Below are positions 3-52,385 of a DNA stretch of 57,139 nt, piece after piece (the stretch's first letter is position 1; each line of letters opens with the position of its first letter). The DNA is taken from positions 1 through 57,139 of the forward strand of contig JACRDK010000022.1 of NCBI GenBank assembly GCA_016218585.1, written 5' to 3'. Source of the stretch: Candidatus Doudnabacteria bacterium. Its GTDB lineage: Bacteria; Patescibacteriota; Doudnabacteria; UBA920. Both the position numbers and the translations under genes were made by a program. Under the pieces are notes generated by a model that worked only from the letters and a program-made list of their open reading frames with translations, was not told the origin of the DNA and did not search any database.

Positions 3-851
3 TCTAATGTTGCCTCTGCTTACATTTCCGGCAGCTCTCTTTATGTAAATGCTCTAACCAGCGGATCTACTAACATTTATGTCTGCCAAAACAATTCTTC
101 TAACTGCGCTACTTTGTATGTAACGGTGAGCGGGGGGTCTTGTGGCTATTACGGTTGCGGCACCGGCACAGGCAGTTTGTATTTTAACACCGCCAGTTTG
201 CCGGTAATGGTAATTGGCCAGTATTACAGCTACCAGTTGCAGACCACCGGCGGCAGCTATCCATACAACTACTATGTTAGCAGCGGCAGCCTGCCTTATG
301 GCTTGTCATTGTCTTCTTCGGGATTAATTTCCGGCGTGCCAAACAGCACCAATACCTCCACCTTCACTGTAAGAGTCAGCGACAATTATGGACGCAGCGC
401 AACAGCTAACTTTACTATTGGCACTACCGGCGGCGGATTAAACTATCCGGGCGGCGTATTGGGCGCGAGTGCTTACGCCAGCGGCAGACTAATAAAAGAA
501 AACGGTACCGTCTATATAGTTTACAAAAATACCAAAACCGGTTTTATTTCCGCATCCGTCTTTACCGGCTTGGGTTTTAAGTTCAGCAATGTCTCTGACG
601 TTGGTTCGTCTGGTTTAGTTGATTCCGGTTATACAGTTCGCACTGCCGCAGCTAGCCACCCATGGGGAGCTTGGATTAAGAGCGGTTCAACTATTTACTT
701 TGTCCATGAGTCCGGCTTGATTCCGGTAGCCGATTATGCAACCTTCATTAATAATGGCGGGCAAGATGCTTATGTTGTAAACGCTAACACTTACGACTTC
801 CGCCTGCCAATGCTAAGCGTAATGACTTACAGCGATTCAAGGCTTCAATAG
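3..851 (+). CDS. Surface/cell-envelope protein, 5'-truncated by window edge (putative Ig/He_PIG-like repeat, GGVLGAS motif, CPR C-terminal repeat domain)
   Basis: Frame open from position 3; S/T/G/Y-rich; 'SGSLPYGLSLSSSGLISGVP...FTVRVSD' Ig-like repeat; 'GGVLGAS' followed by duplicated 'GRLIKENGTVYIV / GAWIKSGSTIYFV' units. Confidence 0.75.
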   Translation, partial: SNVASAYISGSSLYVNALTSGSTNIYVCQNNSSNCATLYVTVSGGSCGYYGCGTGTGSLYFNTASLPVMVIGQYYSYQLQTTGGSYPYNYYVSSGSLPYGLSLSSSGLISGVPNSTNTSTFTVRVSDNYGRSATANFTIGTTGGGLNYPGGVLGASAYASGRLIKENGTVYIVYKNTKTGFISASVFTGLGFKFSNVSDVGSSGLVDSGYTVRTAAASHPWGAWIKSGSTIYFVHESGLIPVADYATFINNGGQDAYVVNANTYDFRLPMLSVMTYSDSRLQ

Positions 852-948
852 CTTATTAGCTGATAGGTTTTAGCTTATAGCTTTAAAATCCCATCCCGAC
901 TTTGTCGGGATGGGATTTTTGTTTGAACTATAAGCTATAAGCTTGCAA
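849..948. repeat. TATAGCT/AGCTATA tandem-unit palindrome enclosing a bidirectional terminator hairpin (885-920)
   Basis: Left arm tagcttattagct..tagcttatagct, right arm ctataagctataagct; central aaaatcccatcccgac/gtcgggatgggatttt between convergent genes. Confidence 0.7.
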
Positions 949-951
949 GAG

Positions 952-1512
952 TTACTGAGACGCTCTTTCTACATATTCACCGGTGCGGGTGTCGATTCTT
1001 AAAGTATCGCCTTCTTTAATGAACATTGGGGCGTTAACAGTCAGTCCGGTTTCCATAATTACCGGCTTGGTAACATTGCCGCCGCTGTTGCCTTTAGTGT
1101 CAGGCGGAGCCTCGGTAACCTTAAGCTCAATTTTTATAGGCAGTTCAATGGAGACTGGTTTGTTATTGAAGCGTAAAATGGATACTTCCATTCCTTCCTT
1201 CAAAAACTTTTCCTGTTCTTCGGTAACTTCCTTGGCAATGTCCACTGTTTCAAAAGTTTCCTGGTTCATAAAGTGGGTGCCTTCGGCGTCGGCGTAGAGG
1301 AAGCTGGCTTTTTCACGAACTACATCTGCTTCTTCAATGCTTTCTCCGAATTTGAAGGAGTATTCATAAACTTTGCCGGTAATAACGTTGCGCATTTTAG
1401 TCTGCATAACGGGCTTTCTTTGGGCGGTGCGCATGCGGTTGCTCCAGATTACCTGAACCGGCTGGTTCTCCCAAAGAATAATTGTGCCAATTTTTAAATC
1501 GTTTAAATCCAT
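952..1512 (-). CDS. efp: Elongation factor P
   Basis: EF-P motifs 'FLYAD...FMNQETFE', 'IELPIKIELKVTEAPP', 'METGLTVNAPMFIKEGD..RIDTRTGEYVER'. Confidence 0.97.
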   Translation of the reverse strand: MDLNDLKIGTIILWENQPVQVIWSNRMRTAQRKPVMQTKMRNVITGKVYEYSFKFGESIEEADVVREKASFLYADAEGTHFMNQETFETVDIAKEVTEEQEKFLKEGMEVSILRFNNKPVSIELPIKIELKVTEAPPDTKGNSGGNVTKPVIMETGLTVNAPMFIKEGDTLRIDTRTGEYVERASQ

Positions 1513-1516
1513 AATA

Positions 1517-1622
1517 TCGCTGAATGACGCGGAACTTTACGCTGAATGACGCGGAAAGTACAGCATCGTTAATGTTTAGCTTCTGCGTATTTCCGCGTTA
1601 GATTCCGCGTACTTCCGCGTTT
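1517..1622. repeat. CGCGGAA-family tandem-unit palindrome
   Basis: Four cgc(t/g)gaa units then four ttc(t/c)gcg units, between rpsR stop and efp start. Confidence 0.85.
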
Positions 1623-1624
1623 AT

Positions 1625-1855
1625 TTAAGCTGCAACAAACGGCAGCAAAGCCATATGTCTGGCTTGCTTTAAGGCTTTGGTCACCATTCTCTGGTGCTTC
1701 GGGCAGGTGCCGGTGCGGTTGTGATTTAAAATTTTAGCATGGGGGGACATAAAGCGGCGCAAAGTCACCGTGTCTTTGTAGTCCACCGTAGAAATTTTGT
1801 TAGAGCAGAAATAACACTGCTTCTTAACTAGGGGGGTGTTGTTAGTTGGTCTCAT
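1625..1855 (-). CDS. rpsR: 30S ribosomal protein S18 (Zn-binding type)
   Basis: 'CYFC...VDYKD...LRRF...RTGTCPKHQR...ARHMALLPF'; follows rpsF-ssb. Confidence 0.97.
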   Translation of the reverse strand: MRPTNNTPLVKKQCYFCSNKISTVDYKDTVTLRRFMSPHAKILNHNRTGTCPKHQRMVTKALKQARHMALLPFVAA

Positions 1856-1862
1856 AATAAAT

Positions 1863-1946
1863 AAGTTTATAAAGTTTATCAGGTTTGTAAAGTTATAAAG
1901 TTTGGGTTCAACTTGATGAACTTGTAACTTTATAACTTTATGAACT
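1863..1946. repeat. TTATAAAG-family tandem-unit palindrome
   Basis: aagtttataaagtttatcaggtttgtaaagttataaagtt / aacttgatgaacttgtaactttataactttatgaact. Confidence 0.85.
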
Positions 1947-2433
1947 AAAATGGAATGTCTTCTACATTAATGTCTTCGCCTTGGACAATAGTTGGCAATT
2001 CTTCATTTATCACTGGGGCCTGCTGAGAGCTTTGGGCGGGGGCGGAAAAATTTTGGCTCGGAGCGGAAGAAGCGGCTGGGGCATATGGGGCTCCGGTGGC
2101 GCCGCCACCGTCAAGCATAATCATATTTTCCCCGACAATTTCCGTGCGGCTTTTTTTCTGTCCGTCTTTGCCATCCCAGGAACGAGTTTGCAAGCGGCCT
2201 TCAATGTAGACGCGGCGGCCTTTTTTCAAGTATTGGGCGGCAATTTCGCCGAGCTTTCTCCAGAGTACCACGTTGTGATATTCTACTTGCTCAACTTTTT
2301 GGCCGGTGGTCTGGTTGTTATAGACAAAGTTGGTGGCTAAGCCAATTTGGCAGACGCTGGAACCGGATGGCGTTGTGCGCAATTCCGGGTCGCGTGTTAA
2401 TCTGCCAATTATCATAACTTTATTTAAGTCCAT
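1945..2433 (-). CDS. ssb: Single-stranded DNA-binding protein
   Basis: 'MDLNKVMIIGRLTRDPELRTT', 'VYIEGRLQTRSW', C-terminal 'EDIPF'; start placed at ATG 2433. Confidence 0.97.
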   Translation of the reverse strand: MDLNKVMIIGRLTRDPELRTTPSGSSVCQIGLATNFVYNNQTTGQKVEQVEYHNVVLWRKLGEIAAQYLKKGRRVYIEGRLQTRSWDGKDGQKKSRTEIVGENMIMLDGGGATGAPYAPAASSAPSQNFSAPAQSSQQAPVINEELPTIVQGEDINVEDIPF

Positions 2434-2440
2434 AAAATTC

Positions 2441-2515
2441 TCCACTAATTCACTAATTTCACGAATTGCACGAATACCACTTAGTGATATTTGTGTTGAT
2501 TCGTGAATTAGTGGA
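2441..2515. repeat. CACTAAT/CACGAAT-family tandem-unit palindrome
   Basis: Perfect 13-bp terminal inverted repeat TCCACTAATTCAC...GTGAATTAGTGGA with internal cacgaat units. Confidence 0.85.
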
Positions 2516-2522
2516 TAAATAA

Positions 2523-3017
2523 TTATTTTGTTAAATCTTCAGACAAGGCTTCTTCAATTTTTTTATCCAGTTCTTCCTGGTTGATTTCCGTTAAGACCGG
2601 AGTTTCTTTTTTTGCAGCAGGAGCTTTTGCGGCTGGCTTTTCGGCCACAACTGCAACTTCTTCGGCTGGAGGTCCTTTGCGGATAATTTTGGACTGGGCA
2701 ATCTTATCTTTTTCCATTCTCGCCAAGTGTTCGTCCAAATTTACAATCAGGTAGCGAACTATGGTCGAATCCTGAGTGTGGATTTTGGCGTCAAAGGCGT
2801 TAATGTTTTTGCTGTCCATTGCAAAATTTACCACAACATAATGTCCGTTGCGGGTTTTACCAATGGGGTATGCTAATTTTTTCTTACCTAACTGAGTCTC
2901 TCTTATGTCGGTTGCGCCAAAGTCTTCAGCAAACTTTAGTACACCTTGAGCAATTTTAGGTACTTCGTCGTCGGCGACTTGAGCGCCAAGCAAGTACATG
3001 AGCTCATATTGCGGCAT
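2523..3017 (-). CDS. rpsF: 30S ribosomal protein S6 with C-terminal extension
   Basis: 'MPQYELMYLL', 'LGKKKLAYPI...GHY', 'IVRYLI'; ATG 3017 has AAAGGA upstream. Confidence 0.95.
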   Translation of the reverse strand: MPQYELMYLLGAQVADDEVPKIAQGVLKFAEDFGATDIRETQLGKKKLAYPIGKTRNGHYVVVNFAMDSKNINAFDAKIHTQDSTIVRYLIVNLDEHLARMEKDKIAQSKIIRKGPPAEEVAVVAEKPAAKAPAAKKETPVLTEINQEELDKKIEEALSEDLTK

Positions 3018-3202
3018 AGAAAGTATCCTTTCTATCCCCCTAATTGGGGGAATATGAATTATTAAGTTGTTGAAATTATAGCATTTGCTGGGGTTTTTGT
3101 CTATTGACAAAACAATCTAAAAATGCTTTAATATAAAGAATTCTTGGCTTAACCAAGAACTACGCCATTTTGAATTTGGCGTAACCCTTAAGGAGGGTTG
3201 AA

Positions 3203-3661
3203 ATGCCTAACAGACTGAATACATTAAAACACATCGATTCTCTCCACACTTTGAGTGTGTGGACGCCGTTTGGCAGTTTGATGACTGACCTTCATTGCTT
3301 TTTGAACGGTCAGCGTCAGCCTTACGGCAATGGGGAAATCTTCATGATGTCGAATGTGATGCCCTTTACAAACGAGCAGGTTCTTGAATCGCTTGGTTCG
3401 CGGGGCAAAAAAACCCTTCCTCTCTGGCTCGATACGCGGCGGTCGGCTTATCTAAGGTTCAACGCAAGCGTAGCATCTGCATTGCCACTGCCGGGGTCCG
3501 ATACCGCGTGGATTCTGACGCTGGAAGGTGAGGTTAGTTGTCCACGATTCGAGGGTGTTATTACCACTGCAAAGATGGTGGGATTCTACGACTGTAAGAA
3601 CGGTAGGGGCTTCATCTTGATCCCCGAGCTGGCCTTACAACAGTTGTACGTCAATCGGTAA
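3203..3661 (+). CDS. Orphan hypothetical protein (self-contained cassette)
   Basis: TTGACA(3104)-17-TTTAAT promoter, AAGGAGG SD, 152-aa ORF, terminator at 3684-3717. Confidence 0.7.
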   Translation: MPNRLNTLKHIDSLHTLSVWTPFGSLMTDLHCFLNGQRQPYGNGEIFMMSNVMPFTNEQVLESLGSRGKKTLPLWLDTRRSAYLRFNASVASALPLPGSDTAWILTLEGEVSCPRFEGVITTAKMVGFYDCKNGRGFILIPELALQQLYVNR

Positions 3662-3683
3662 TCACATAATGTGTTTTGACAGA

Positions 3684-3717
3684 CAGCGCAGACCTTCGGG
3701 CCTGCGCTGTTTTCTTT
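3684..3717 (+). terminator. Rho-independent terminator
   Basis: acagcgcag-accttcgggc-ctgcgctgt followed by T-rich tract. Confidence 0.8.
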
Positions 3718-3772
3718 ACTCAAAAAACATAGTATGTGTTAAAATAATTTATATCAAATCCCGAACTGGAGG

Positions 3773-4138
3773 ATGAGGATGCAGTTTGCGTGTATTGTTC
3801 TGTTGTTAGTTTTTGCGCCGGCGATGTTTAGTCAGCGTTTCTTTGATAGTCCTGTGGTAATGGGCAATCTTAAGCCTGGCCACAGTATCAACCTCGTTTG
3901 TCCGGAGGCGATGCCGGAGCTCAAGTTCGAGGTTACGGTCAACGCAGCCGGCGAGGTGAAGAAGGCTAAGGCCCTCAAGCCCAGAAGTATGCCAGTAAGG
4001 TATTCAATGGCAGCTTATGGGTTTCTGCGCAATCAGGCCAAGGTTATGGTCTCAAGTTGGACCTTCCGGCCCATGCTATTAAACAACAAGGCGGTTCCAA
4101 TGAGAACCGTAATCACCGTGCCCTGCACCCCGCAATAA
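3773..4138 (+). CDS. Secreted protein with TonB C-terminal-like domain (start may be ATG 3779)
   Basis: Signal-peptide-like N-terminus; 'FEVTVNAAGEVKKAKAL...VSSWTFRPMLLNNKAVP..TVITVP' resembles TonB_C; GGAGG upstream; hairpin about 4168-4197. Confidence 0.6.
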   Translation: MRMQFACIVLLLVFAPAMFSQRFFDSPVVMGNLKPGHSINLVCPEAMPELKFEVTVNAAGEVKKAKALKPRSMPVRYSMAAYGFLRNQAKVMVSSWTFRPMLLNNKAVPMRTVITVPCTPQ

Positions 4139-4264
4139 TCCCGCGCTCTGTTTCGCGCGTATGCAAAAAGGCCTTCCCGCGTTTGGAGGGCCTTTGTCTT
4201 TTTGTCTCACCCCTTCTTCCTTATCTAACTTCGGTGGGCAGGCAGGGGGAGGGAAATTTACAAA

Positions 4265-5341
4265 TTATAGAAAGTGAACCACATCGCCATCTTGAACGAT
4301 ATAATTTTTGCCTTCCGTTCTAATCCAACCTTTGTTTCTGGCTGGACCGTAGCCGCCGGCTTCCAAGAGTTTGTCCCATTGGATAACCTCCGCCCGAATG
4401 AAGCCTTTTTCAAAGTCGCTGTGAATTTTTCCGGCCGCTTGCGGAGCCTTGCTTCCTGCAGTGCAAGTCCAAGCCTTGCTCTCTTTTGGCCCGGCAGTAA
4501 TAAAAGTAATAAGCCCAAGAGTTTTATAAGCTTCTTTGATAATTTTATTTAGGCCGGATTCCGGCAGCCCCAATTCTTTTAAATATTCAGTTCGCTCTTC
4601 GTCGGAAAGTTCCGCCAGCTCGCTTTCAATTTTCGCGTCTATTGGGATGGGATTGGAAATTGGAAATTTGGTTTGAGAAAGTTCGGAAGCGAATTGTTTT
4701 TTCTCCAAATTAAATTCGTCGTTTACTACGTACATTATCGGTTTGTTGGTAAGCAAAATAATATCTTTGCTGTGTTCTCTCTCTTCATCGCTTAACTGTA
4801 CACTGCGAACCATTTCTCCTTTTTCCAGAGCCGTTTTATATTTTTCTAAAACTTGTTTCTTTACAATTGCGTCGCGATCGCCGGACTTTGCCATTTTGTT
4901 TACAGTGGTTAAGCGATTTTCTACATTTTGTAAGTCTGCCAATTGCAGTTCAATGGCAATAGTCTCCATATCGCGGCTTGGGTCAACATTGCCGTTAACG
5001 TGGATAATGTCTTTATTTTCAAACACGCGAACCACTTCCAAAATTGCATCCACTTCACGAATATGGCTTAAAAATTTATTTCCCAGTCCAGCACCTTCGC
5101 TCGCTCCTTTTACAAGCCCGGCGATATCTACAAATTCAATGGTGGTTGGGACAATTTTTTCGCTATTTTCCAGCTTCGCAAGTTTTGCCAAGCGATCATC
5201 CGGTACGGCCACAACACCCACATTGCGGTCAATGGTAGCAAAAGGGTAGTTAGCCGCTTCTACTTTGCTTTTAGTAATGGCGTTGAATAAAGTTGATTTG
5301 CCGACATTAGGCAGGCCGACGATGCCGATTTGAAAGCTCAT
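4265..5341 (-). CDS. ychF: Ribosome-binding ATPase YchF
   Basis: 'GIVGLPNVGKSTLFNA', 'ANYPFATI', 'DIAGLVKGASEGAGLGNKFLSHIRE', TGS 'APQAAGKIHSDFEKGFIRAE'. Confidence 0.98.
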   Translation of the reverse strand: MSFQIGIVGLPNVGKSTLFNAITKSKVEAANYPFATIDRNVGVVAVPDDRLAKLAKLENSEKIVPTTIEFVDIAGLVKGASEGAGLGNKFLSHIREVDAILEVVRVFENKDIIHVNGNVDPSRDMETIAIELQLADLQNVENRLTTVNKMAKSGDRDAIVKKQVLEKYKTALEKGEMVRSVQLSDEEREHSKDIILLTNKPIMYVVNDEFNLEKKQFASELSQTKFPISNPIPIDAKIESELAELSDEERTEYLKELGLPESGLNKIIKEAYKTLGLITFITAGPKESKAWTCTAGSKAPQAAGKIHSDFEKGFIRAEVIQWDKLLEAGGYGPARNKGWIRTEGKNYIVQDGDVVHFL

Positions 5342-5347
5342 AATATG

Positions 5348-5445
5348 ATACTAATATACGGATTAATACAGATGATGCTGATAATACGGATATTTGTGAT
5401 CAGTATTATCGGTAGCATCTGCACGCATCAGTATATCAGTATCTC
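5348..5445. repeat. ATAC(G/A)GAT/ATCAGTAT tandem-unit palindrome upstream of ychF
   Basis: tacggat, tacagat, gctgat, tacggat units then atcagta, atcggta, atctgca, atcagta, atcagta. Confidence 0.7.
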
Positions 5446-5565
5446 GTAAGTTTAGCCAAGGGGAGCATATGGTTTTGACAAAAGGCCGATATAGGAATAT
5501 TATTTGCAGTAGAATTAGGGCGCTTGTACTGGCGCCTTGGTTAAGTAAGTTATGTAAGAGGAACG

Positions 5566-5895
5566 ATGCCAAACAACTATCGGTTGAAGGATTTTGACGG
5601 GACAAATGCGTCCTTTCAGGATGTGGTCAGCTATTTCGAGGCTGTCCATCAGGTTAGTCCTCGTCTTCGTAAGCCGGGTCGACGTCCTCAACTTCTTCAT
5701 GAGCTGAGGCTCGCCGGAGGCCAGCTGAAGGAGATTCGAACCAGTGATCGTCTGAGGGGCGATGGCTTTTCTCTCTCAGAAGCCAAAGCCATCAATCCTG
5801 ACGAAGTCAGGGTGACGCTCGTTCATGAATTCATGGGCGCGCCCCTTCGTACGGCCTCGGTCACGTACCATCGCATTCTTGTTAACCTTGTTTGA
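5566..5895 (+). CDS. Orphan hypothetical protein (self-contained cassette)
   Basis: TTGACA(5475)-17-TATTAT, AAGAGGA SD, GC-rich terminator gggcggc..gccgccc+T tract at about 5934-5972. Confidence 0.65.
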   Translation: MPNNYRLKDFDGTNASFQDVVSYFEAVHQVSPRLRKPGRRPQLLHELRLAGGQLKEIRTSDRLRGDGFSLSEAKAINPDEVRVTLVHEFMGAPLRTASVTYHRILVNLV

Positions 5896-5975
5896 TCACA
5901 TCGATTAGAGCACTCACAACCGTGAGATGCCAAGGGCGGCCCGCAATCACGCGCGGCCGCCCTCTTTCTTTTATA

Positions 5976-6195: not shown

Positions 6196-6316
6196 TTTCA
6201 CTATAGCACTTTTTTATTATTTTACAATTTATTTGACGAAAATATATTTAGGTAGTACGCTTTGCCTTATGAGCGGCTGTTTAACCGCTCCAAACCAAGC
6301 TCCTAAGGGGGAGTGA

Positions 6317-8656: not shown

Positions 8657-8671
8657 AATTTAGATTTGAGT

Positions 8672-18744: not shown

Positions 18745-18773
18745 TTGCTTGGTCTTGACATAAGTGGTAGAAT
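18745..18773 (+). promoter_or_regulatory. Probable uvrA promoter
   Basis: TTGCTT-17 nt-TAGAAT with TG extension; 18-nt core duplicated at about 18628-18645. Confidence 0.5.
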
Positions 18774-18793
18774 GATGGCTAGTCTGTTGTTAT

Positions 18794-18891
18794 TTACTAA
18801 ATACGAATTTGTACTAATATACTAATCTTTATTTTATTAAAGATATAAAGGCTTTTGAATTAGTATATTAGTATTTATTAGTACTTAGTAA
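18794..18891. repeat. TACTAAT-family tandem-unit palindrome upstream of uvrA
   Basis: tactaaatacgaat..tactaatatactaat / attagtatattagtatttattagtacttagtaa. Confidence 0.85.
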
Positions 18892-18895
18892 AAAT

Positions 18896-21751: not shown

Positions 21752-21906
21752 GCGTGATCCAATAACCCTACTGGTGTCATCCCGGCCTCCGAGCCGGGAT
21801 CCAGTATTTAAGCCAAGTTCTGGATCCCGGATATCCCGACCTGCCTACCGGACAGGCGGGTAAATCGGGATTCCGGGATGACACAGTTAGGTTATTTGAC
21901 TCACGT
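21752..21906. repeat. Nested REP/MITE-like palindromic element
   Basis: Outer gcgtga..aataacc / ggttatt..tcacgt; GTGTCATCCCGG...CCGGGATGACAC; inner TCCCGA..TCGGGA; innermost CCTGCCTACCGGACAGGCGGG. Confidence 0.75.
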
Positions 21907-22580: not shown

Positions 22581-22925
22581 ATGGAGCAAGATCAAGAATT
22601 CGTAGAATACATTGTCAAAGCGTTGGTTGATCATCCAGCAGATGTTAAAACCGAACGCGTTGTTGACGAAATGGGAGTATTAATTACTCTTCATTTGAAC
22701 CCGGAAGACATGGGTCAGGTTATTGGCCGCATGGGCCAGACCGCCAAAGCCATCCGCACCCTGCTTAGAGTTGTCGGCGCCAAGCGCAAAGCTCGCGTCA
22801 ACTTGAAAATCTATGAACCAGAAGGTTCTCACCGCAGAACTGAACGCCACGAAAGCGGCGATCACAGCAGCCAAATGGAAATGAGCCACGACTCCGGCGA
22901 TTCCATTGATGAATTCAAACTATAA
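22581..22925 (+). CDS. khpA: KH-domain RNA-binding protein KhpA
   Basis: 'FVEYIVKALVDHP', 'DMGQVIGRMGQTAKAIRTLL'; position after rpsP. Confidence 0.93.
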   Translation: MEQDQEFVEYIVKALVDHPADVKTERVVDEMGVLITLHLNPEDMGQVIGRMGQTAKAIRTLLRVVGAKRKARVNLKIYEPEGSHRRTERHESGDHSSQMEMSHDSGDSIDEFKL

Positions 22926-23032
22926 ACGCGGAACTTGCGCGGACATTAACGCAGGATTCGCCGAACAGTTAAGATTAAAATAACCCCTTTAGCTCTTACG
23001 CTTTTGGGGTTATTTTGTTAGAATAAGAGCGT

Positions 23033-25089: not shown

Positions 25090-25163
25090 CAAGAATTAGG
25101 AGTTTAGAATCAAGAATTAGGTTTTAGGCCTTTCATGATTCATAATTCCTGATTCATAATTCA
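25090..25163. repeat. AAGAAT(T/C)-family heptamer palindrome upstream of rplS
   Basis: caagaattaggagtttagaatcaagaattagg / ttcatgattcataattcctgattcataattc. Confidence 0.8.
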
Positions 25164-27102: not shown

Positions 27103-27221
27103 ATTTTTCTCCTTTTGAATCAGACCAGGTCAAAAGCCTTAATTCTTGATTCTTAATTCTTGTTTCAAATTTAATTATAAGTATCTTTGACAGGGAGGGC
27201 AACTTATGGTAAGATTGAGCT

Positions 27222-28973: not shown

Positions 28974-29067
28974 TCGCGGATACGCAGATCCTAAACCGGA
29001 TAGCGCAGATAACTGCAATTGCAGTACTGCAAATCTGTGTTATCAGCGTCAATCCGCGCATCTGTGA
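28974..29067. repeat. CGC(G/A)GAT-family tandem-unit palindrome
   Basis: cgcggat, cgcagat, ccggat, cgcagat / atctgtg, atcagcg, atccgcg, atctgtg; central actgca..tgcagt. Confidence 0.85.
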
Positions 29068-29868: not shown

Positions 29869-29946
29869 TAATTCACAAATTCGCGAAATACGCCAATATC
29901 ACAAAATATGAATTCGTGATATTCGCGTTATTAGTGAATTAGTGGA
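29869..29946. repeat. CACTAAT/CACGAAT-family tandem-unit palindrome
   Basis: attcacaaattcgcgaa.. / ..ttcgtg..ttcgcg..attagtgaattagtgga. Confidence 0.8.
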
Positions 29947-29955
29947 CAAAACAAA

Positions 29956-30483: not shown

Positions 30484-30592
30484 ACCTACCGAAACTGCAC
30501 ATATACTGCACTACAGAAGTCTACAGAAGGGTCCAGGTGTTTCGATTCTGTAGTTTTCTGTAGATTAGTATTAATTAGTAATTTTTGTAGGT
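30484..30592. repeat. CTACAGA-family tandem-unit palindrome
   Basis: ctaccga..ctacagaagtctacaga / tctgtagttttctgtag..tttgtagg. Confidence 0.75.
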
Positions 30593-30594
30593 CT

Positions 30595-31484: not shown

Positions 31485-31546
31485 ATGAGCGGGTCTCATC
31501 TTTTTTTGTCTTCTGGCGCTAAACAACTAAATAACAATTAAATATA

Positions 31547-31625
31547 AATTCACTAATTCACGAATCAACACCAATATCACTAATGGGTGATTTCGTGTCA
31601 TTCGTGCTATTAGTGTATTAGTGGA
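31547..31625. repeat. CACTAAT/CACGAAT-family tandem-unit palindrome upstream of nusA
   Basis: cactaattcacgaat..cactaat / ttcgtg..ttcgtg..attagtgtattagtgga. Confidence 0.85.
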
Positions 31626-32773: not shown

Positions 32774-32913
32774 TTAACCTAATTATTCTAATTTCTAATT
32801 GACTTAAGTAAGCCCAAATGAAGAAAATAAAAATTATTAAAGTACCACTTTTTGGGTGCGGCTGAACTTGATTTGTTTAGAAATTAAGAATTAGATATTA
32901 GAAATTATTAACA

Positions 32914-35923: not shown

Positions 35924-36004
35924 TTACTAAATTCTAATATGTACTAATATACCAATCTTAAACAGCGCGCATTAGTATATTGGTAAATAATTAGTATTTA
36001 GTAA
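35924..36004. repeat. TACTAAT-family tandem-unit palindrome
   Basis: tactaaattctaat..tactaatataccaat / attagtatattggta..attagtatttagta. Confidence 0.85.
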
Positions 36005-36915: not shown

Positions 36916-36980
36916 GCTACAGAACTGCTGGCATTAGGACACTACAGAAAACTACAGAATCTAAATATGTCATTCTGTCT
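36916..36980. repeat. CTACAGA-family repeat arm
   Basis: ctacagaa x3; complementary units at about 36973-36978 and 37186-37199. Confidence 0.6.
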
Positions 36981-37048
36981 ATGGTATATAGAATTTAGAA
37001 AATAATTGTAATAGAGCTATTTTTATTTAATATGTTTTAATTTAATTG

Positions 37049-40307: not shown

Positions 40308-40400
40308 AACGCAGAAAATGCTGAAATTAACGCCGAAATACGCGGAAAATAACTGCAGTATTCTGCGTTATTCAGCGTAAAATTCCGCGACAGTCCGCGA
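40308..40400. repeat. CGCGGAA-family tandem-unit palindrome upstream of dnaJ
   Basis: Four units, central ACTGCAGT, four inverted units ending 3 nt before ATG. Confidence 0.88.
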
Positions 40401-42189: not shown

Positions 42190-42232
42190 GCAGCTTTCTA
42201 TAATCTAAAATCTTCAATCTAATTCCTAACGT

Positions 42233-43348: not shown

Positions 43349-43372
43349 TTTCAGGATATTTGTATCGTTAAA

Positions 43373-43409
43373 AAATTGACCATAATTGAATTCAATTATG
43401 GTCAATTTT
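43373..43409. terminator. Perfect palindrome between convergent genes
   Basis: aaaattgaccataattgaattcaattatggtcaatttt. Confidence 0.7.
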
Positions 43410-44376: not shown

Positions 44377-44381
44377 AGAGA

Positions 44382-44470
44382 TTACTAATACGCGATACAA
44401 ATATACTAATTTACTAATGTTAACGAAATAAAGACATTAGTTATCATTAGTCTTCATTAGTATATTGGTA
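44382..44470. repeat. TACTAAT-family tandem-unit palindrome
   Basis: tactaat..tactaatttactaat / attagt..attagt..attagtatattggta. Confidence 0.8.
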
Positions 44471-44480
44471 TCTTTTATTA

Positions 44481-44852
44481 TTATTCCTGTTCCGATAAAG
44501 TTATATCGCCCAGAACAAAATTTTGCCAGGTTCCTTCATAAGAAACCCTGACTTTTTTGCCGATTAGAGAACTGAAGTCCCGGTTGCTGCGAATATAAAT
44601 ATTTCGTTCGCTGGTTACCAATAATAAATTTCCTTTGGCCGCGTTGTCAGATTTCTGCAAAGTGCCGGTCCAAACATCTGATTTAGCGGAAGGAGTGCTG
44701 TCGGTTGGTTGAACTGTCTGCTGTTGGTTTTGGTTTTGTTGCTGCTGCGCCGGCTGCTTATCTGCTTTTTTGCTTAGGGAAAGCCAAAGAGCGGCTATGA
44801 CTATTACAGCTACCCCGATCCAGCCGTATAGTTGTTGATTCTTAATATTCAT
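44481..44852 (-). CDS. Membrane-anchored protein with Q-rich linker and small beta domain
   Basis: TM, QQQQNQNQQQ linker, OB-fold-like C-terminus. Confidence 0.7.
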   Translation of the reverse strand: MNIKNQQLYGWIGVAVIVIAALWLSLSKKADKQPAQQQQNQNQQQTVQPTDSTPSAKSDVWTGTLQKSDNAAKGNLLLVTSERNIYIRSNRDFSSLIGKKVRVSYEGTWQNFVLGDITLSEQE

Positions 44853-45661: not shown

Positions 45662-45671
45662 TTTAGTTTAC

Positions 45672-45696: not shown

Positions 45697-45727
45697 AAAT
45701 TTCCGCCCAGGCGGTATAATTAAGCCT

Positions 45728-47125: not shown

Positions 47126-47131
47126 TTAAAT

Positions 47132-47264
47132 AACTTATGAAACGCATTACTCAAAATTTTTGGTTTTATTTTACCCCGATCGTTGAGACCGGAAATTTTG
47201 AGTTGAAAAAATCCTAAACCTTTCGACTTCTAATTCCCGAGCTCAACTGAGCGTCGGGATTTTT
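47132..47264 (+). ncRNA. Candidate sRNA / 26-aa peptide gene (ORF 47137-47217)
   Basis: TTGACA(47099)-16-TATAAT; 20-bp stem 47149-47168/47184-47203 with G-U pairs; terminator tcccga..tcggga+T tract. Confidence 0.45.
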
Positions 47265-47332
47265 TATTTGTCTTTCGACTTATCGACGGCCAAATAAATA
47301 TAAATTGTTTGAAAAACCCTTAGGAGGGAAAG

Positions 47333-47539
47333 ATGGAAGGTAAACCAGTAATTAGACCAGTATGTGAATGTGGTTGGGAGCTTGATTTGCCGTCCGGCAC
47401 ATGTTCTAACCCGAAGTGTTATGTGCAGTTTGTTCCTGTGCCGCCTGAATCGAAACCTAAAGCCAAGCGCCCGGCTTTTGCCACCGATGAAGAATTTCAA
47501 CGCTGGAAAAACGGACGGCCTAATGAAGTTCGTTTTTAG
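47333..47539 (+). CDS. Small orphan protein with CxC...CxxxxC (possible Zn ribbon)
   Basis: AGGAGGGA SD; 'CECG...CSNPKC'. Confidence 0.55.
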   Translation: MEGKPVIRPVCECGWELDLPSGTCSNPKCYVQFVPVPPESKPKAKRPAFATDEEFQRWKNGRPNEVRF

Positions 47540-47892
47540 GACTGTTGCCCATGAGGGCGAGGAATTTATGTCCCGGCCCCGGGAACATTTTCCTGGCCCT
47601 CTTTGGGCCAAAACAAACGCTGCTGAAAGGAGAAAAGCATGAATGAAGTCTGGTTTTGATTACCGAGCCGAAGCGGGTTTCTTTGGCAGCCGGGGGAGAG
47701 TTTCCTTCTCCCCCGCAAAATTTATTTTTTTATATATTTATGAACAATTTAAATAATTCATTTTCAGTCTCGTGGTATACATTGCCGGGTGTTTGAATTT
47801 GGCAATTTTGAGCTGCAAGATTATTGGCTCCAGTTTGCCGGATTCAACAAGGTCCGGCTTTTTTGTTTGGCAGAAAATTTTAAGGAGCGAAT

Positions 47893-48159
47893 ATGAACAA
47901 CCGTTTAAAGAGAGTCCTGATTACAAAGCTGCAGGCATTCAAGAATCAGCACAAGCATTGGAACGGGCCGCAACAGCAACTTTTCAGTGCCTTGAGCGGA
48001 AAACGCGGGCTGTGGAGTGTCCGTTGCTGTGCGAAATGCCTGGAAGAGGTAATCGGGTCCAAAGATCAACTCAATCATCACTGCGGCGAGCTGATTGTTG
48101 AAGTTCAGATCAAGGAGCCCAAAAAAGTTCCGGGCGACTATGTCTCAGCTTGGGAGTAG
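47893..48159 (+). CDS. Orphan hypothetical protein
   Basis: AAGGAG SD; 'CCAKC..HHC'; terminator atccgttcccctt/aaggggaacggat 48186-48215. Confidence 0.6.
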   Translation: MNNRLKRVLITKLQAFKNQHKHWNGPQQQLFSALSGKRGLWSVRCCAKCLEEVIGSKDQLNHHCGELIVEVQIKEPKKVPGDYVSAWE

Positions 48160-48226
48160 TAAAGGGCTTTGCCAAACCGCCATCTATCCGTTCCCCTTAT
48201 TTAAGGGGAACGGATAAACTTTTTTC

Positions 48227-48275
48227 TTGACAAAGTGCCAAAAATAGTGTATGATAAGTATGTAATGACATACTT
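48227..48275 (+). promoter_or_regulatory. Promoter with adjacent inverted-repeat operator
   Basis: TTGACA-17-TATGAT followed by AAGTATGT-AATG-ACATACTT. Confidence 0.7.
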
Positions 48276-48295
48276 TAATTTTTTGGAGGCAAATA

Positions 48296-48592
48296 ATGGC
48301 TAAAATAGTTATGGATTCAAAAATCCACCAGCAGGATAAAATGTATGGGACCACAACCATAGGAGCGCGCGGCCAGGTGGTTATTCCGGCTCAGGCCAGA
48401 AAAGATTTAAAACTTAAGCCGGGTGATCAATTTATAGTAATGGGTAAGTTTGGCAAAGTGGTGGCTTTAGTTAAAACAGACCAACTCTCCGAACTAATAG
48501 AAACAATTATGTCTAATATTAGCAATCCTTCATGGAAAAAAGGAATTAAAAAACATATGCAAGGAGTGCTAGGAAGCCAATTTATTAAATAA
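48296..48592 (+). CDS. AbrB/MazE/SpoVT-family DNA-binding protein
   Basis: 'TIGARGQVVIPAQARKDLKLKPGD'. Confidence 0.9.
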   Translation: MAKIVMDSKIHQQDKMYGTTTIGARGQVVIPAQARKDLKLKPGDQFIVMGKFGKVVALVKTDQLSELIETIMSNISNPSWKKGIKKHMQGVLGSQFIK

Positions 48593-48615
48593 ATTATTTA
48601 TAATTATAAACACGT

Positions 48616-50142
48616 ATGAACATTAGGGGATTTTTCACAAAAAAGAAAATAATTTGGACAGTAATAATTTTACTGGTCGTTTTGCCAATCGCGTATAATA
48701 TTTTAAAACCAAAAGACAACAGCGCCAACATTGTTACAGATGTTGTAAAAAAACAAGACATAAAATATACCGTTTTAGCTACCGGACAGGTTGTTTCCGA
48801 AACCGACTTGAACTTGAGTTTTAAAACCAGCGGCATTGTCCAGCAGGTTAGAGTTAAAGAAGGGGACAAGGTTAAAGCCGGACAAATTTTGGCCAGCTTG
48901 GATCAAAAGGACCAGTTAGCCAGCCTTACCTCCGCCCGCGGCGCGCTTTCTTCCGCCCAGGCCAACTACAATAAAGTTTTGTCCGGAGCCAGCAACGAAG
49001 AAATTTCCGTAGCTCAGGTGACTTTAGACAATGCCAAGAGCTCATTGGATAATACTATTAAGCAACAGCAAGTATTGGTAGACAGCGCTTATAAAGCTTT
49101 AATGAACTCAGGTCTTTCCGCTATTGCCGGTTCAGGCAATACCGGTTCGGTAACTTCTACTGTTTCCGGTACATATACCGGCAAAGACCAGGGCGTTTAC
49201 AAAATTTCTATTTATTCCACCGGAAATGGTTTGCGTTTTCAGGTTAATGGTTTAGAAACCGGCGATGGTTTGGTGGATGTAACTCCGCAGCCAATTGGCA
49301 CCAAGGGTTTGTTTATCCAATTTTCCTCCACCAGCGTGCCAACAAACAACTCTTGGACAATAACAATTCCAAATACTCAATCTTCTTCTTACGTTACGGC
49401 ATACAATGCTTATAACTCTGCTTTAGAAACTCAGAGAAGCGCCGTGTCTGCCGCTCAGAATGCTGTTTCTTCCGCTCAGGCATCTTTGGATTTGAAAAAA
49501 GCCCAAGCCCGCCCGGCAGACTTAGAAGCCGCCCAGGCGCAGATTTTAAGCGCGCAGGGACAAGTTTTGGCTGCTCAGTCGGCTTTCGATAATACTATGA
49601 TAAAAGCTCCGGCCGATGGCACCATTACTTCGGTAGACGTTAAAGTTGGCGAACTCGCCTCAGCTTTAAAAGAAGTAGTGATTTTACAGGATGTTGGCAA
49701 TTTGCACGTTGAAGCCAATATTAGCGAGGCCAACATTGCTTCTTTAAAGCCTGATCAATCGGTAGATATTACTTTGGATGCTTTGGGGCCGGACAGACAT
49801 TTTACCGGCAAGGTTCAAACTGTAAATCCGGGGGCAACTGTCGTCTCAGGCGTAGTAAACTATAAAGTTACCGCCAGTGTCGACAATATTCCCGAAGTAA
49901 AACCGGGGATGACAGCCAATATGACTGTTTTGGTAGCGGAAAAGAAAAATGTTTTGGCTATGCCGCTCCGCGGTATTATTTCCAAAGACGGAAAAAAATA
50001 TGTCCGCGTAATTACCGACAGCAAAAAGAAAACCTATAACGAAGTAGAAGTTACAACCGGCCTGGAAGCAGATGAAGGCTTGGTGGAAATCCTCTCCGGC
50101 TTAAATGACGGACAAGAAGTTGTGACATATATAAAACAATAA
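48616..50142 (+). CDS. MacA/HlyD-like membrane fusion (adaptor) protein
   Basis: TM; lipoyl halves 'VRVKEGDKVKAGQILASLD' and 'IKAPADGTIT'; 'VKPGMTANM'. Confidence 0.92.
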   Translation: MNIRGFFTKKKIIWTVIILLVVLPIAYNILKPKDNSANIVTDVVKKQDIKYTVLATGQVVSETDLNLSFKTSGIVQQVRVKEGDKVKAGQILASLDQKDQLASLTSARGALSSAQANYNKVLSGASNEEISVAQVTLDNAKSSLDNTIKQQQVLVDSAYKALMNSGLSAIAGSGNTGSVTSTVSGTYTGKDQGVYKISIYSTGNGLRFQVNGLETGDGLVDVTPQPIGTKGLFIQFSSTSVPTNNSWTITIPNTQSSSYVTAYNAYNSALETQRSAVSAAQNAVSSAQASLDLKKAQARPADLEAAQAQILSAQGQVLAAQSAFDNTMIKAPADGTITSVDVKVGELASALKEVVILQDVGNLHVEANISEANIASLKPDQSVDITLDALGPDRHFTGKVQTVNPGATVVSGVVNYKVTASVDNIPEVKPGMTANMTVLVAEKKNVLAMPLRGIISKDGKKYVRVITDSKKKTYNEVEVTTGLEADEGLVEILSGLNDGQEVVTYIKQ

Positions 50143-50144
50143 TT

Positions 50145-50236
50145 AACGCGGAAAAGCGCGGAATTTCACGCAGAAAGACGCAGAAATACTGCAGTCTTCC
50201 GCGTTAGTCCGCGTTAAATTCCGCATCATTCTGCGA
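50145..50236. repeat. CGCGGAA-family tandem-unit palindrome
   Basis: Four units, central ACTGCAGT, four inverted units ending 2 nt before ATG. Confidence 0.88.
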
Positions 50237-50238
50237 AT

Positions 50239-50955
50239 ATGAGTTTAATCAAAGTAGAAAATTTACAAAAAGATTATATAAATGAAGAAGTCGTGACTTC
50301 GGTTTTGCACGGCCTGACTTTTGCCATTGAGCAAGGAGAGTTTGTGGCAATTATGGGGCCGTCCGGCAGCGGTAAATCTACCTTAATGCACATATTAAGT
50401 TTTTTGGATCGCCCGACCGGGGGATTGTATGAGTTTAAGGGAAAAGATATTAAAGGATTTGACGACGATTATTTGGCGGCTTTGCGCAACGAAGAAATTG
50501 GTTTTGTTTTCCAATCTTTTAACCTGTTGTCGAGAACCTCGGTGCTTGATAACGTTAAGCTGCCTTTAATTTACAGCAAGAAAAAGAACCACGATGAGCT
50601 TGCAAAAAAAGCTTTGGACAGCGTTGGTCTTTCGCATCGTTTGAATTTTTTTACTAACCAAATTTCCGGTGGAGAAAAACAGCGCGTGGCAATTGCCCGG
50701 GCTTTGGTTAATGATCCGGCGGTTATTTTTGCGGACGAGCCGACGGGAAACTTAGACAGCAAGAGCGGTAATACCGTTATGCAAATTTTGCAAAAATTAA
50801 ATGACGACGGCAGAACAATTATTTTGGTGACCCACGAAATGGATACCGCCAACCATGCCAAGAGAATTATTCGCGTTAAAGACGGAAATATTATCGGCGA
50901 CGAAAAAGTGCTTAAGAGAACAATTGCTTCCCCGGATAAAGAACTGGTTAAATAA
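50239..50955 (+). CDS. MacB/LolD-type ABC ATP-binding protein
   Basis: Walker A GPSGSGKS, '[11 protein letters not shown]', '[15 protein letters not shown]', 'ADEPTGNLD'. Confidence 0.96.
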
Positions 50956-51029
50956 GAATTAAGAATCTGGAATTATGAATCAAGAATGGGCCCATTGCCT
51001 TAATTCTTAATTCATCATTCATAATTCTA
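50953..51029. repeat. AAGAAT(T/C)-family heptamer palindrome
   Basis: taagaattaagaatctggaattatgaatcaagaat / cttaattcttaattcatcattcataattct. Confidence 0.85.
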
Positions 51030-51032
51030 AAA

Positions 51033-52304
51033 ATGAATTTCATTTCTACCATCAAACTTGTTTTTAGAACGCTTCTGGCTAGAAAAGGCCGGTCGTTTTT
51101 GACAATTCTGGGTATTGTTATTGGCGTTGCCGGAGTAATTATAATAATTGCCCTTGGCGCCGGCGCGCAAAGCTTGGTGCTTGGGCAGGTTACCAAATTA
51201 GGAACTAATTTGCTTTCTGTCCAACCGGGCAAGAGCAATGAAAAAGGGCCGCCAGCCCAAATTTTTGGCATTGTTATTACCAGCTTAATCCAGGAAGACG
51301 CGGACGCCCTAAGGGATACCGCTCAAGTTCCTCATGCCACGGCTGTTGCTTCGGGTGTGCGCGGCGGCGGCACGGTTGTATGGCAGAGCAAGGAAGTAGA
51401 CACAAACTTTGTCGGCACCGATTATACCTATCCGGAAGTTGTTACTATAACCATGCAAGAGGGTCGCTTTATGAGCCAACAGGAAGAGCAGGGGAACGCC
51501 AATGTGGTTGTGTTAGGTTCAGCTGTTGCCGACGAATTGTTTACAGAGAGCGGCACCGACCCATTAGGCCAGGTTATTAAAGTTAAGAGCTCATCTCAGA
51601 CTGAGGCCGGCGGCATTCCTTTAAGAGTTATTGGCGTGGTCTCTCCGCGCGGCAGCGCTTTTTTCCAAAATCAGGACGACCAAATTTTTATTCCGTTAAC
51701 CATTGCTCAAAAGCAATTGTTGGGCATACACTACTTGCAGTCAATCAATGTTAAAGTTGACTCGGCGGATAATGTTGACCAGACAATTGCCGATGTAAAA
51801 GCAGTATTAATGCAGCGTCATCACATTAAAAAAGAAGTTGATACAGATTTTACCGTCCGCAATATTGCCGATGCGGTTAGCGCGCTTAATACAATTACCA
51901 ATGCTTTGCGCTTGTTTTTAACAGCTATGGCTGCCATTGCTTTGGTTGTCGGCGGTATTGGAATTTTAAATATTATGATGGTGACTGTGGCGGAGCGAAC
52001 CAGAGAAATTGGTTTGCGTAAAGCCGTGGGCGCTAACAATTCCGCGGTGCGAAATCAGTTTTTGCTGGAAGCCGGAACTCTTACTTCCGTCGGCGGGGTA
52101 ATTGGCATTATTTGTGGAATTATAGTTTCATATTTGGTTTCTTTATTAATGAAATATTTGGGTTACGATTGGGCCTTTGTTGTTTCTTTAACTTCCGTGG
52201 TCTTGGCGGTCGGTGTCTCAATTTTAACCGGAGTTATTTTTGGGCTGTATCCTGCTTTTAAAGCGTCAAAGCTTAATCCGATAGACGCGCTACGCTACGA
52301 ATAA
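51033..52304 (+). CDS. MacB/FtsX-type ABC permease
   Basis: 'RSFLTILGIVIGVAGV', 'VGGIGILNIMMVTVAERTREIGLRKAVGA', 'LNPIDALRYE'. Confidence 0.95.
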   Translation: MNFISTIKLVFRTLLARKGRSFLTILGIVIGVAGVIIIIALGAGAQSLVLGQVTKLGTNLLSVQPGKSNEKGPPAQIFGIVITSLIQEDADALRDTAQVPHATAVASGVRGGGTVVWQSKEVDTNFVGTDYTYPEVVTITMQEGRFMSQQEEQGNANVVVLGSAVADELFTESGTDPLGQVIKVKSSSQTEAGGIPLRVIGVVSPRGSAFFQNQDDQIFIPLTIAQKQLLGIHYLQSINVKVDSADNVDQTIADVKAVLMQRHHIKKEVDTDFTVRNIADAVSALNTITNALRLFLTAMAAIALVVGGIGILNIMMVTVAERTREIGLRKAVGANNSAVRNQFLLEAGTLTSVGGVIGIICGIIVSYLVSLLMKYLGYDWAFVVSLTSVVLAVGVSILTGVIFGLYPAFKASKLNPIDALRYE

Positions 52305-52316
52305 CGAAAAAAGCCG

Positions 52317-52385
52317 CAAGTTAATAAAGTTATCAAGTTCTTCGAGTCCTTATAACTTTACAAACTTGATAGACTTGATAACTTG
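52317..52385. repeat. TTATAAAG-family tandem-unit palindrome
   Basis: caagttaataaagttatcaag / cttataactttacaaacttgatagacttgataacttg. Confidence 0.8.

Follow-up and report, generated by a model that had tools for sequence, protein, structure and literature searches.

Tandem-unit palindromes at operon junctions of a Candidatus Doudnabacteria genome are probably an ORF-less form of small insertion cassettes

What occupies the gaps between the housekeeping genes of Candidatus Doudnabacteria is the question raised by the 57,139-nt stretch of DNA analysed here (contig JACRDK010000022.1 of assembly GCA_016218585.1, called the window throughout; it is C18 among the 31 contigs of this 1.19-Mb genome from groundwater). 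Many of its intergenic regions hold palindromes in which an array of short tandem units is followed by a short centre and then by inverted units, and which the original prediction, made from the letters of the window, had read either as empty, non-autonomous forms of small mobile cassettes or as mRNA hairpins. The results presented here favour the first of these readings, and we think it probable that the window palindromes are the form, devoid of an open reading frame (ORF), of small insertion cassettes present in this genus and in other Patescibacteria.

Tandem-unit arrays were present at all 19 coordinates listed in that prediction, and at 17 of them they form palindromes with a left arm of 2 to 5 units, a short centre and the units inverted. 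Three detectors agreed in placing the number of such structures in the whole genome far above that expected from shuffled sequence: a detector of exact 6-mers found 105 (against 1, 4 and 2 in three block shuffles), an ungapped detector of palindromes matching at 22 of 28 positions found 95 (against 2), and a detector of 7-mers with at most one mismatch found 178 palindromes in 890 intergenic regions (against 16, 12 and 18 in shuffles). Length, folding and polarity were studied in the best-supported subset of 122 elements, those with at least two seeds, which have a median length of 86.5 nt, a median of 28 predicted pairs and a median folding z-score of -5.6, with 106 of the 122 falling below -3 relative to shuffles. 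A gapped hairpin score did not separate the elements from terminators, and the scan of the window at the Rfam gathering thresholds returned two tRNAs and nothing else. At least 15 arm families exist genome-wide, and copies of the same family share the order of their units over the full length. Two details of the earlier description also stand, namely the half copy at 22925, where a left arm alone is followed by a terminator-like hairpin, and the central ACTGCA(G)T common to three CGCGGA copies; to the elements listed there we add one of 130 nt with CTAATT units (32778-32908) and two solo arrays (27138-27162 and 42190-42232).

The ORF-bearing copies are what carries the cassette reading. A search for distant arm pairs yielded six pairs 367-406 nt apart, belonging to different unit families, five of which enclose a homologous ORF of about 126-133 codons (frameshifted in one case) that codes for a GxxExxY protein (TIGR04256, PF13366 PDDEXK_3), and an array nearby flanks a weakly bAvd-like four-helix-bundle protein (TIGR02436, PF05635 '23S rRNA intervening sequence protein'), whose fold we take to be that of the Avd protein of diversity-generating retroelements. 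The genome contains 11 GxxExxY loci, one of them frameshifted, and 9 four-helix-bundle loci. Examined by eye, arms of the families seen in the empty elements bracket 9 of the 11 GxxExxY genes and all 9 four-helix-bundle genes, that is, about 18 of 20, the two GxxExxY loci left over being a domain inside an 835-codon ORF and a locus with unclear arms. A full cassette measures about 0.5 kb, is composed of 2 to 5 tandem units of 7-12 nt, a gene of about 115-135 codons and the units inverted, and spans from the stop codon of one gene to the ATG of the next. Full and empty forms alike are lodged in such gaps, and both also turn up in leader regions, flanking terminators, within a probable group I intron and in the 23S rRNA gene itself. 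The statement in the original prediction that such arms flank Avd-like and GxxExxY genes is borne out, in this genome and in others. The cargo is co-oriented with both neighbours in 19 of 30, 33 of 44 and 20 of 30 loci, and opposed to both in 1, 0 and 1 respectively, which suggests that it relies on operon transcription.

Three observations concern the surroundings of the cargo genes. Directly behind the RNase III gene lies a GxxExxY cassette whose arms are of the ACAAAT type (C23:6442-7557, L151), and several relatives have GxxExxY and four-helix-bundle genes no more than 1-3 kb apart. The GxxExxY/PDDEXK_3 domain also occurs as part of a conserved ORF that has about 700-850 codons and no tandem-unit arms (C5:84095-86602; also G009:C17, G002:C67 and G018:C1), apparently a fused, non-cassette form of it.

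To our knowledge, no role has been assigned to either cargo family, widespread as both are. The GxxExxY cargo scores 58.3-101.6 bits against the curated cut-off of 35 for TIGR04256 and 61.7-100.2 bits against that of 22 for PF13366, and 46 sequences show little or no variation at G31, E36, Y39, D75, E88 (at least 90% of sequences) and K90, the last three forming a D..ExK pattern. Its structural model (predicted local distance difference test, pLDDT, 94.9) has Cas4, MGME1, lambda exonuclease and the Hjc resolvases as best folds; these Foldseek matches correspond to the generic PD-(D/E)XK core (template modelling score, TM, about 0.36-0.58), and a profile search against PDB sequences gave nothing below E = 0.05. 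Judged from these residues and the model, the nuclease looks intact, and we read from the model a nuclease fold and no more, the likeness to Hjc giving no inference as to substrate.

Comparison of empty with ORF-bearing copies relates the two directly. The window element at 44377-44490 is a cassette that has lost its ORF by internal deletion: its left 48 nt are identical to C27:1815-1863 at 41 of 48 positions, including the ATGTTAAC of the cargo, and its right 44 nt to C27:2251-2294 at 41 of 44, while with respect to the complete cassette (C27:1815-2294) it lacks about 390 nt of ORF and keeps the first 8 nt. When the arms of 18 window elements were scored against the flanks of 19 cassettes, with 15 shuffles as the null, 11 of the 18 scored higher with the arms of one cassette than any of the 15 shuffles did, the cassette being of the GxxExxY kind for six of them and of the four-helix-bundle kind for five. 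The CACTAAT family has no cassette in this genome and has one in the relative G010 (L067).

The arms themselves proved to be less diverse than the original prediction had held. The families are real, but five of the eight that had been called unrelated (CGCGGA, CACTAAT, TACTAAT, CTACAGA and ATACGGAT) vary a single heptamer theme, YRCNRAW. This theme is directional, since it is found at least three times pointing inward in 41 of the 122 elements and in none of them pointing outward. We examined 42 GxxExxY loci, the records of which bear the names Doudnabacteria, Moranbacteria, Komeilibacteria, Falkowbacteria, Magasanikbacteria, Zambryskibacteria, Parcubacteria and others. At least five inverted 6-mers are common to both flanks in 39 of these loci, and YRCNRAW occurs at least four times inward in 37 and more than twice outward in none. 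For the 30 four-helix-bundle loci of the genus, at least five inverted 6-mers are shared between the flanks in 23 of the 29 scored. With this genome left out, the median number of YRCNRAW units in the genus is about 2.5 in GxxExxY arms (n = 20) as against 0 in four-helix-bundle arms (n = 25). The theme had been noted before the genus loci were seen; related genomes not being independent, the contrast is descriptive. On these figures, cargo and arms travel as one unit across Patescibacteria, and the intrinsic polarity of the arms, both in this theme and in the base composition given below, fits transposon-like ends.

Polarity of another kind bears on the possibility that the palindromes are unusual intrinsic terminators or attenuators, since 5' arms are A-rich and 3' arms T-rich (5' arm with more A than T in 91 as against 20 of the 122 elements), as in bidirectional terminators, and some arms do flank true terminator-like hairpins (at 849 in the window and at C30:43254). 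Most elements, however, lie inside ribosomal-protein and chaperone operons, between co-directional genes and only 0-10 nt before the next ATG; they have no U-tract or T-run, and canonical terminators with a GC hairpin and a T-run stand separately in the window. The earlier statement that the elements are not terminators holds as regards the absent U-tract, with the reservation that some arms, as at 849-944, surround terminator-like hairpins, and of all the alternatives weighed here we give this one the slightest chance.

If the palindromes descend from cassettes, orthologous junctions should differ between relatives in presence and in family, and both kinds of difference were seen. The nusA query was matched in 31 of 31 genomes, this one included. 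An element stands before nusA in 12 of 18 loci of the genus as counted by the detector (own genome included) and in 16 of 18 as counted by eye, the second count being higher because four loci have degenerate units, against one in 12 genomes that belong to other families of the order. At least eight unit types were found at this one site (CACTAAT, TACGAA, ACGCAGAT, ACACGGAT, CACAAAT, TACAGA, CGCTGA and CGCGGAT), and no element at all in G008 and G018. In syntenic stretches of this genome and five relatives, the g41/g42 junction is occupied in all six, by five families; g42/g43 is empty in G017, g48/g49 nearly empty in G007, and the hrcA/grpE gap of G007 has only 25 nt. The element at 30484 is orthologous and alignable in G017, and four other relatives have four other unit families there; at the junction of 28974-29065 the relative G010 carries an ORF-bearing cassette with CACTAAT arms and a GxxExxY gene (L067). 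An AT-rich box (ACAATTAAATA) at about 31520-31545, between a terminator-like hairpin and the nusA-proximal element, is conserved in many genomes of the genus (L002-L014) and is also present in two genomes without an element before nusA.

Copies at unrelated places were found as well. A 90-nt CCGAAT..GGGCCC element is identical at 84 of 90 positions between this genome (infC/rpmI gap) and G015 (between a methyltransferase and a hypothetical gene), two genomes in which the proteins of the window are 38-97% identical, and in G007 near-identical copies of one family sit at neighbouring junctions. Of 62 contig ends, 16 have an array no more than 300 nt away, compared with 8.6% of random windows, an enrichment that recently copied repeats would give. 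A survey of density at NusA loci from metagenomes found elements in 6 of 48 gaps of close relatives and in 22 of 414 gaps of distant ones, against 0 and 4 in shuffles. With the armed ORF copies, the ORF-deleted window element and the turnover of junctions in place, the empty-cassette half of the original prediction is supported, having come through the tests that were set for it there.

The other half of that prediction, which we regard as unlikely, would have the palindromes be host-selected mRNA hairpins at operon junctions (processing sites, decay barriers, or insulators by which start codons without a Shine-Dalgarno sequence are held free of structure) that evolve in place as units and arms change in concert, with the small ORFs as later lodgers in their loops. 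Several results are in its favour. Junctions stay occupied across the genus, as the counts before nusA and at g41/g42 illustrate, and the arms of the CTACAGAA element are well conserved in G017, neighbouring proteins being 58-80% identical. The genome encodes RNase Y and RNase III (rnc). The elements abut stop and start codons alike: for the 88 elements in co-directional gaps, both codons are within 20 nt in 50 cases, the start only in 11, the stop only in 14 and neither in 13, although these distances are approximate because genes were called with a crude ORF picker, a weakness that bears on the cassette reading as well. These same figures do not support the proposal that start-codon regions are targeted, the elements being as near to stops as to starts. 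The Shine-Dalgarno (SD) sequence is mostly absent from the genome, and the observation that the ATGs behind elements have none was correct without being special to them: an SD-like 4-mer precedes 8% of genes behind an element (background 6.6%), and only 18% of genes with a long element-free gap and 15% of those with a gap below 30 nt. Displacement of the SD, or its repositioning by the hairpin, was considered and rejected, there being no SD 5' of the left arms and SD use being low genome-wide. Promoter-like extended -10 boxes (TGGTATAAT / TGGTAGAAT) are found in several long gaps, near 18770, 33585, 34390, 41600 and 53720.

Against host-selected hairpins stands the distribution of the 178 elements over gap types, which is roughly proportional to the gaps available (129 in co-directional gaps, which make up 594 of 860; 25 divergent; 16 convergent), divergent and convergent gaps being occupied about as often as they occur. 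Near-identical copies at unrelated junctions and in other species, and the start of the deleted cargo ORF retained in a window element, also speak against it, as does a fixed inward arm polarity tied to the cargo family across Patescibacteria, which a sequence-free need for a hairpin does not predict. Among the 88 co-directional elements the sense strand folds more stably than the antisense strand in 34 and less stably in 54, with 144 G.U pairs in sense against 183 in antisense, and hence no sense-strand G.U excess and no sign of selection on the sense RNA. A role as host mRNA hairpins, added to a cassette origin, is possible.

This lack of a sense-strand signal is also a point against our own reading, as are the following. 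For seven of the 18 window elements this genome offers no cognate cassette. Neither a target-site duplication nor a sharp end was found in 25 flanked copies of three families, a weak negative given that the ends are fuzzy. No report of an activity of GxxExxY proteins was found in the searchable literature. The centres differ in most TACTAAT copies, so these copies did not all spread as empty units, and the differing centres of many copies suggest repeated loss of the ORF in place rather than amplification of a single deleted copy. The turnover described above would be that between species, the best NusA matches in a metagenome scan being 87-88% identical with no near-identical strain among them, and in comparisons at that level independent decay and replacement would look the same as concerted drift in situ. 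The arm type tends to be constant for a given junction, all elements before nusA being of the YRCNRAW type and, by eye, all those at g33/g34 of other types, a constancy that also fits evolution in place. Finally, the solo left arm at 22926 has similar units in five genomes (a CGCGrA-type array with the same hairpin in G007, G013, G015 and G017), which hints at a role for arrays by themselves. The last two results are shared as favourable evidence by the host-hairpin explanation.

The conserved solo array would equally suit arrays that bind protein at the DNA level, iteron- or operator-like, and that serve regulation or the organisation of the nucleoid with no mobility, a notion to which the head-to-tail short units with an inverted partner and the constancy of the unit motif for one protein family also lend themselves. 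Unit spacing, on the other hand, ranges from 7 to 12 nt, periods that led us to discard helical phasing; the many unrelated unit families would call for a large number of binders in a genome of 1.2 Mb, different families replace each other at one and the same junction, and some elements lie inside rRNA and the probable intron. Arrays of this kind are, in our judgement, very unlikely to account for the elements.

We searched for known systems into which the cassettes and palindromes might fit, and found no description of either in open-access papers and bioRxiv. The genome has a single Y1 transposase gene resembling the REP-associated tyrosine transposases (RAYT) (C29:54244-54657; PF01797; NF047646 at 77.4 against a cut-off of 80), and the hairpins made of paired repetitive extragenic palindromes (REP), the REPINs, are likewise long, intergenic and present in many copies according to two reports (PMC3116915, PMC3337134), so that movement of the palindromes by this enzyme had to be considered. 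REP and REPIN families resemble our palindromes in being abundant intergenic hairpins that are long-lived at their positions; the palindromes differ in having no GTAG/CGTC head and GC-stem design and in being tied to other genes. The RAYT-like gene is flanked by its own canonical GTAG-headed REP (of the type GTAGTyTGCCGATTTATCGGC, 8 copies, without tandem units), a single transposase would be required to handle at least 15 arm families unrelated to each other, and the arms go with two other gene families instead. Having its own REP family, the RAYT-like gene was dropped as a candidate, and the probability that it moves the window elements is very small indeed. The REPs on both sides of the gene are inverted, and some of the 8 genome copies are REPIN-like doublets.

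Transposable elements of the miniature inverted-repeat type (MITEs) are, like the shells, short, ORF-less, intergenic, multi-copy, able to fold, and in possession of both ends of an ORF-bearing element. Here, in contrast, the parent has no known transposase, as neither of its two kinds of cargo, the GxxExxY PD-(D/E)XK nuclease and the four-helix bundle, belongs to a recognised transposase family; short tandem units strung into arrays take the place of a single terminal inverted repeat, and no target-site duplication was seen in the 25 copies inspected, whose ends are fuzzy. The integron gene cassette was rejected on architecture alone, arms standing on both sides of each ORF and cassettes being dispersed singly; no integrase search was made. 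In T-even phages the free-standing genes of homing endonucleases (seg, mob) are small, wedged between conserved genes, co-oriented with them and patchy, and relatives may have different genes at the same junction, as with the cassettes; they are not known to have inverted tandem-unit arms or to leave hairpin shells, and their enzymes are GIY-YIG and HNH, not GxxExxY. The nearest repeat-only analogue is the TAACTGA heptamer of Beggiatoaceae, cyanobacteria and Bacteroidetes, which occurs as 2-6 tandem copies just 5' of start codons, in gaps without ribosome-binding sites and before essential genes too, with function given as unknown (PMC4679880). It differs from our elements in being a single heptamer in direct orientation only (one indirect among 170 sets), with no inverted partner and no reported cargo (PMC4679880).

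The closest relation is to the intervening sequences (IVS) of 23S rRNA in Coxiella, Leptospira, Salmonella and others, which are, like the cassettes, selfish inserts with complementary ends that form a long stem, and whose optional cargo, S23p, is the same PF05635 four-helix bundle. The Coxiella IVS is described as having a protein of this family, terminal inverted repeats that give a 28-bp stem, cleavage by RNase III within that stem, and a 5' arm with tandem GACAGAT heptamers whose copy number varies between strains (PMC4990558), and PF05635 ORFs are reported in insertions of rRNA genes of the candidate phyla radiation (CPR) (PMC11270868). In the present genome the 23S rRNA gene (C14:14157-17980, L041) is about 900 nt longer than the Rfam model; near model position 2855, 3 nt at the tip of a hairpin have given way to an 82-nt tandem-unit palindrome with GTAG-type units, and a probable group I intron in the gene (Rfam 26 bits, below gathering) holds two more such palindromes. 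The common stem, cargo family and heptamers, together with these palindromes in the 23S gene, lead us to read the window palindromes as the operon-junction counterpart of IVSs. The two differ in that an IVS sits in an rRNA helix, whereas all elements of the window and nearly all those of the genome lie between protein genes, with the three exceptions just described in the 23S gene; in number and kind, with about 180 elements per 1.2 Mb, at least 15 arm families and most elements ORF-less; and in a second cargo, the GxxExxY nuclease, with a heptamer theme of its own.

Placing our results into a scheme of how cassettes arise and decay, we propose that they would spread as DNA, probably by action of the cargo nuclease on, or by way of, the heptamer arrays that belong to it. 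Free-standing phage endonuclease genes spread by recombination in flanking genes, a process known as intron-less homing, and swaps at one junction may likewise run through recombination in the conserved flanking genes; new junctions would need another route. In RNA, pairing of the arms could give a stem of about 25-40 bp by which the insert would be folded out of the transcript of the operon; by analogy with the classical rRNA IVSs, this stem would be a likely substrate of RNase III. Folding and cutting of the stem would make insertion between cistrons or in rRNA tolerable, and upon decay of the ORF the paired arms would persist as palindromes of the kind seen in the window.

A bolder version of this scheme, which we find attractive and yet rather doubtful, holds that GxxExxY nucleases read their own inward YRCNRAW arrays and drive unrecognised 'junction cassettes' across Patescibacteria, with the four-helix-bundle cassettes as a sister class and the rRNA IVSs as the branch lodged in rRNA; the arms being RNase III stems, selfish DNA would then dictate cuts at no less than a tenth of operon junctions in certain ultra-small genomes, and the host may depend on them. 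As far as we know, the origin of rRNA IVSs has been open since 1990, and the cassettes offer a testable frame both for it and for the role of two protein families, whose genes would be the cargo of small heptamer-armed cassettes that invade the gaps from stop to start codon in the housekeeping operons of reduced genomes and then decay to hairpin shells. Should the arms be RNase III sites, selfish DNA would shape the mRNA architecture of Patescibacteria, in which initiation is mostly not SD-led, and should the nuclease read the heptamers, it would be a new and very small DNA enzyme specific for sequence arrays. In annotation, the cassettes would account for hundreds of 'structured intergenic repeats' and for some contig breaks in CPR metagenome-assembled genomes.

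The individual elements of the window are collected in Table 1. The genes next to them include efp, rpsR, ssb, rpsF, ychF, uvrA, the RNase Y gene, the gene of the TIGR00282 phosphoesterase, YraN, nusA, hrcA, grpE, dnaJ and parts of ABC transporters.

Table 1. Tandem-unit elements of the window, with positions in the window and the cassettes whose arms they match (scores: element vs shuffled null)
Position	Element and setting	Cassette match or remark
849..944	TAGCTTA-unit arms around a terminator-like GC hairpin (~884-919), convergent genes	Marginal match to arms of four-helix-bundle cassette C5:73338, 45 vs null maximum 40
1518..1620	CGCGGAA/CGCTGAA palindrome, fills efp/rpsR gap	No cognate cassette above null in genome
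1863..1941	AAAGTT-unit palindrome, fills rpsR/ssb gap	Four-helix-bundle cassette C22:118890, 83 vs 47
2441..2517	CACTAAT/CACGAAT palindrome, fills ssb/rpsF gap	CACTAAT-armed GxxExxY cassette in relative G010 (L067)
5347..5443	ACGGAT/ACTGAT palindrome, immediately 5' of ychF	GxxExxY cassette C31:6385, 72 vs 38
18793..18892	TACTAAT palindrome, ends 3 nt before uvrA ATG, 3' of a promoter-like TGGTAGAAT box	GxxExxY cassette C8:60551, 101 vs 49
22926..22968	Solo left arm of CGCGGAA-type units, then terminator-like hairpin	Plus strand
25090..25163	GAATTA/AAGAAT palindrome, convergent genes	Four-helix-bundle cassette C5:75048, 62 vs 39
27138..27162	Solo right-arm-type array of AATTCTT units, divergent gap	
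28974..29065	CGCGGAT/CGCAGAT palindrome, fills RNase Y/TIGR00282 phosphoesterase gap	GxxExxY cassette C29:126678, 69 vs 38
29871..29947	CACAAAT/CGCGAAA palindrome, fills phosphoesterase/methyltransferase gap	
30484..30594	CTACAGAA palindrome, core 30503-30571, outer remnants of other arms, fills gap	
31549..31625	CACTAAT/CACGAAT palindrome, ends 5 nt before nusA ATG	G007 has the same family here, most of the genus other families
32778..32908	CTAATT-family element, 130 nt, longer centre, 3' of nusA	Four-helix-bundle cassette C22:5359, 84 vs 45
35924..36003	TACTAAT palindrome, fills hrcA/grpE gap	Cassette C8:60551, 85 vs 39
36916..36984	Degenerate CTACAGA element, left arm clear, right arm decayed, long gap before dnaK	
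40308..40398	CGCAGAA/CGCGGAA palindrome, ACTGCAGT centre, ends 5 nt before dnaJ ATG	Weak match to cassette C29:126678, 49 vs 39
42190..42232	Possible solo array of AATCTAA units, no inverted partner	By eye only; weakest item
44377..44490	TACTAAT/ACAAAT palindrome, a GxxExxY cassette minus ORF interior	126 vs null maximum 44
50145..50235	CGCGGAA/CGCAGAA palindrome, ACTGCAGT centre, fills gap before ABC ATPase gene	
50953..51031	AAGAATT palindrome, fills ABC ATPase/permease gap	Four-helix-bundle cassette C5:75048, 76 vs 42
52317..52392	AAGTT-unit palindrome, fills permease/permease gap	Four-helix-bundle cassette C22:118890, 82 vs 43

Repeats of other types were met in the course of this work. 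A GC-rich nested palindrome (GATCCCGGATATCCCG ... CGGGATTCCGGGATG) is present in the window (21753-21905), at C27:3539-3575 and at C30:23087-23123, the window copy being placed inside an inverted repeat of about 150 nt with a palindrome of the CCTGCCTACCGG type at its centre. A perfect palindrome of 20 nt, CCTGCCTACCGGCAGGCAGG, occurs seven times (C5:129957, C8:26852, C13:10261, C29:34746, C29:45823, C30:6972 and C30:54884), often in the centre or an arm of tandem-unit palindromes as if it inserted there, and is found also in the relative G007. Between convergent genes of the window, at 43372-43409, lies a perfect 19+19-nt palindrome with AATTGACCAT-type units, and two direct copies of the same unit make their appearance in the hrcA/grpE gap of G007. 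Lastly, the short contigs C1, C4, C6, C7, C9, C10, C15, C19, C21, C24 and C26 carry dense ATAGGG, GAAACTT, AAAGTC and AAAGTT arrays with up to 10 units per arm and shared centres, and may represent either a replicon of their own or a stretch rich in repeats at which the assembly broke.

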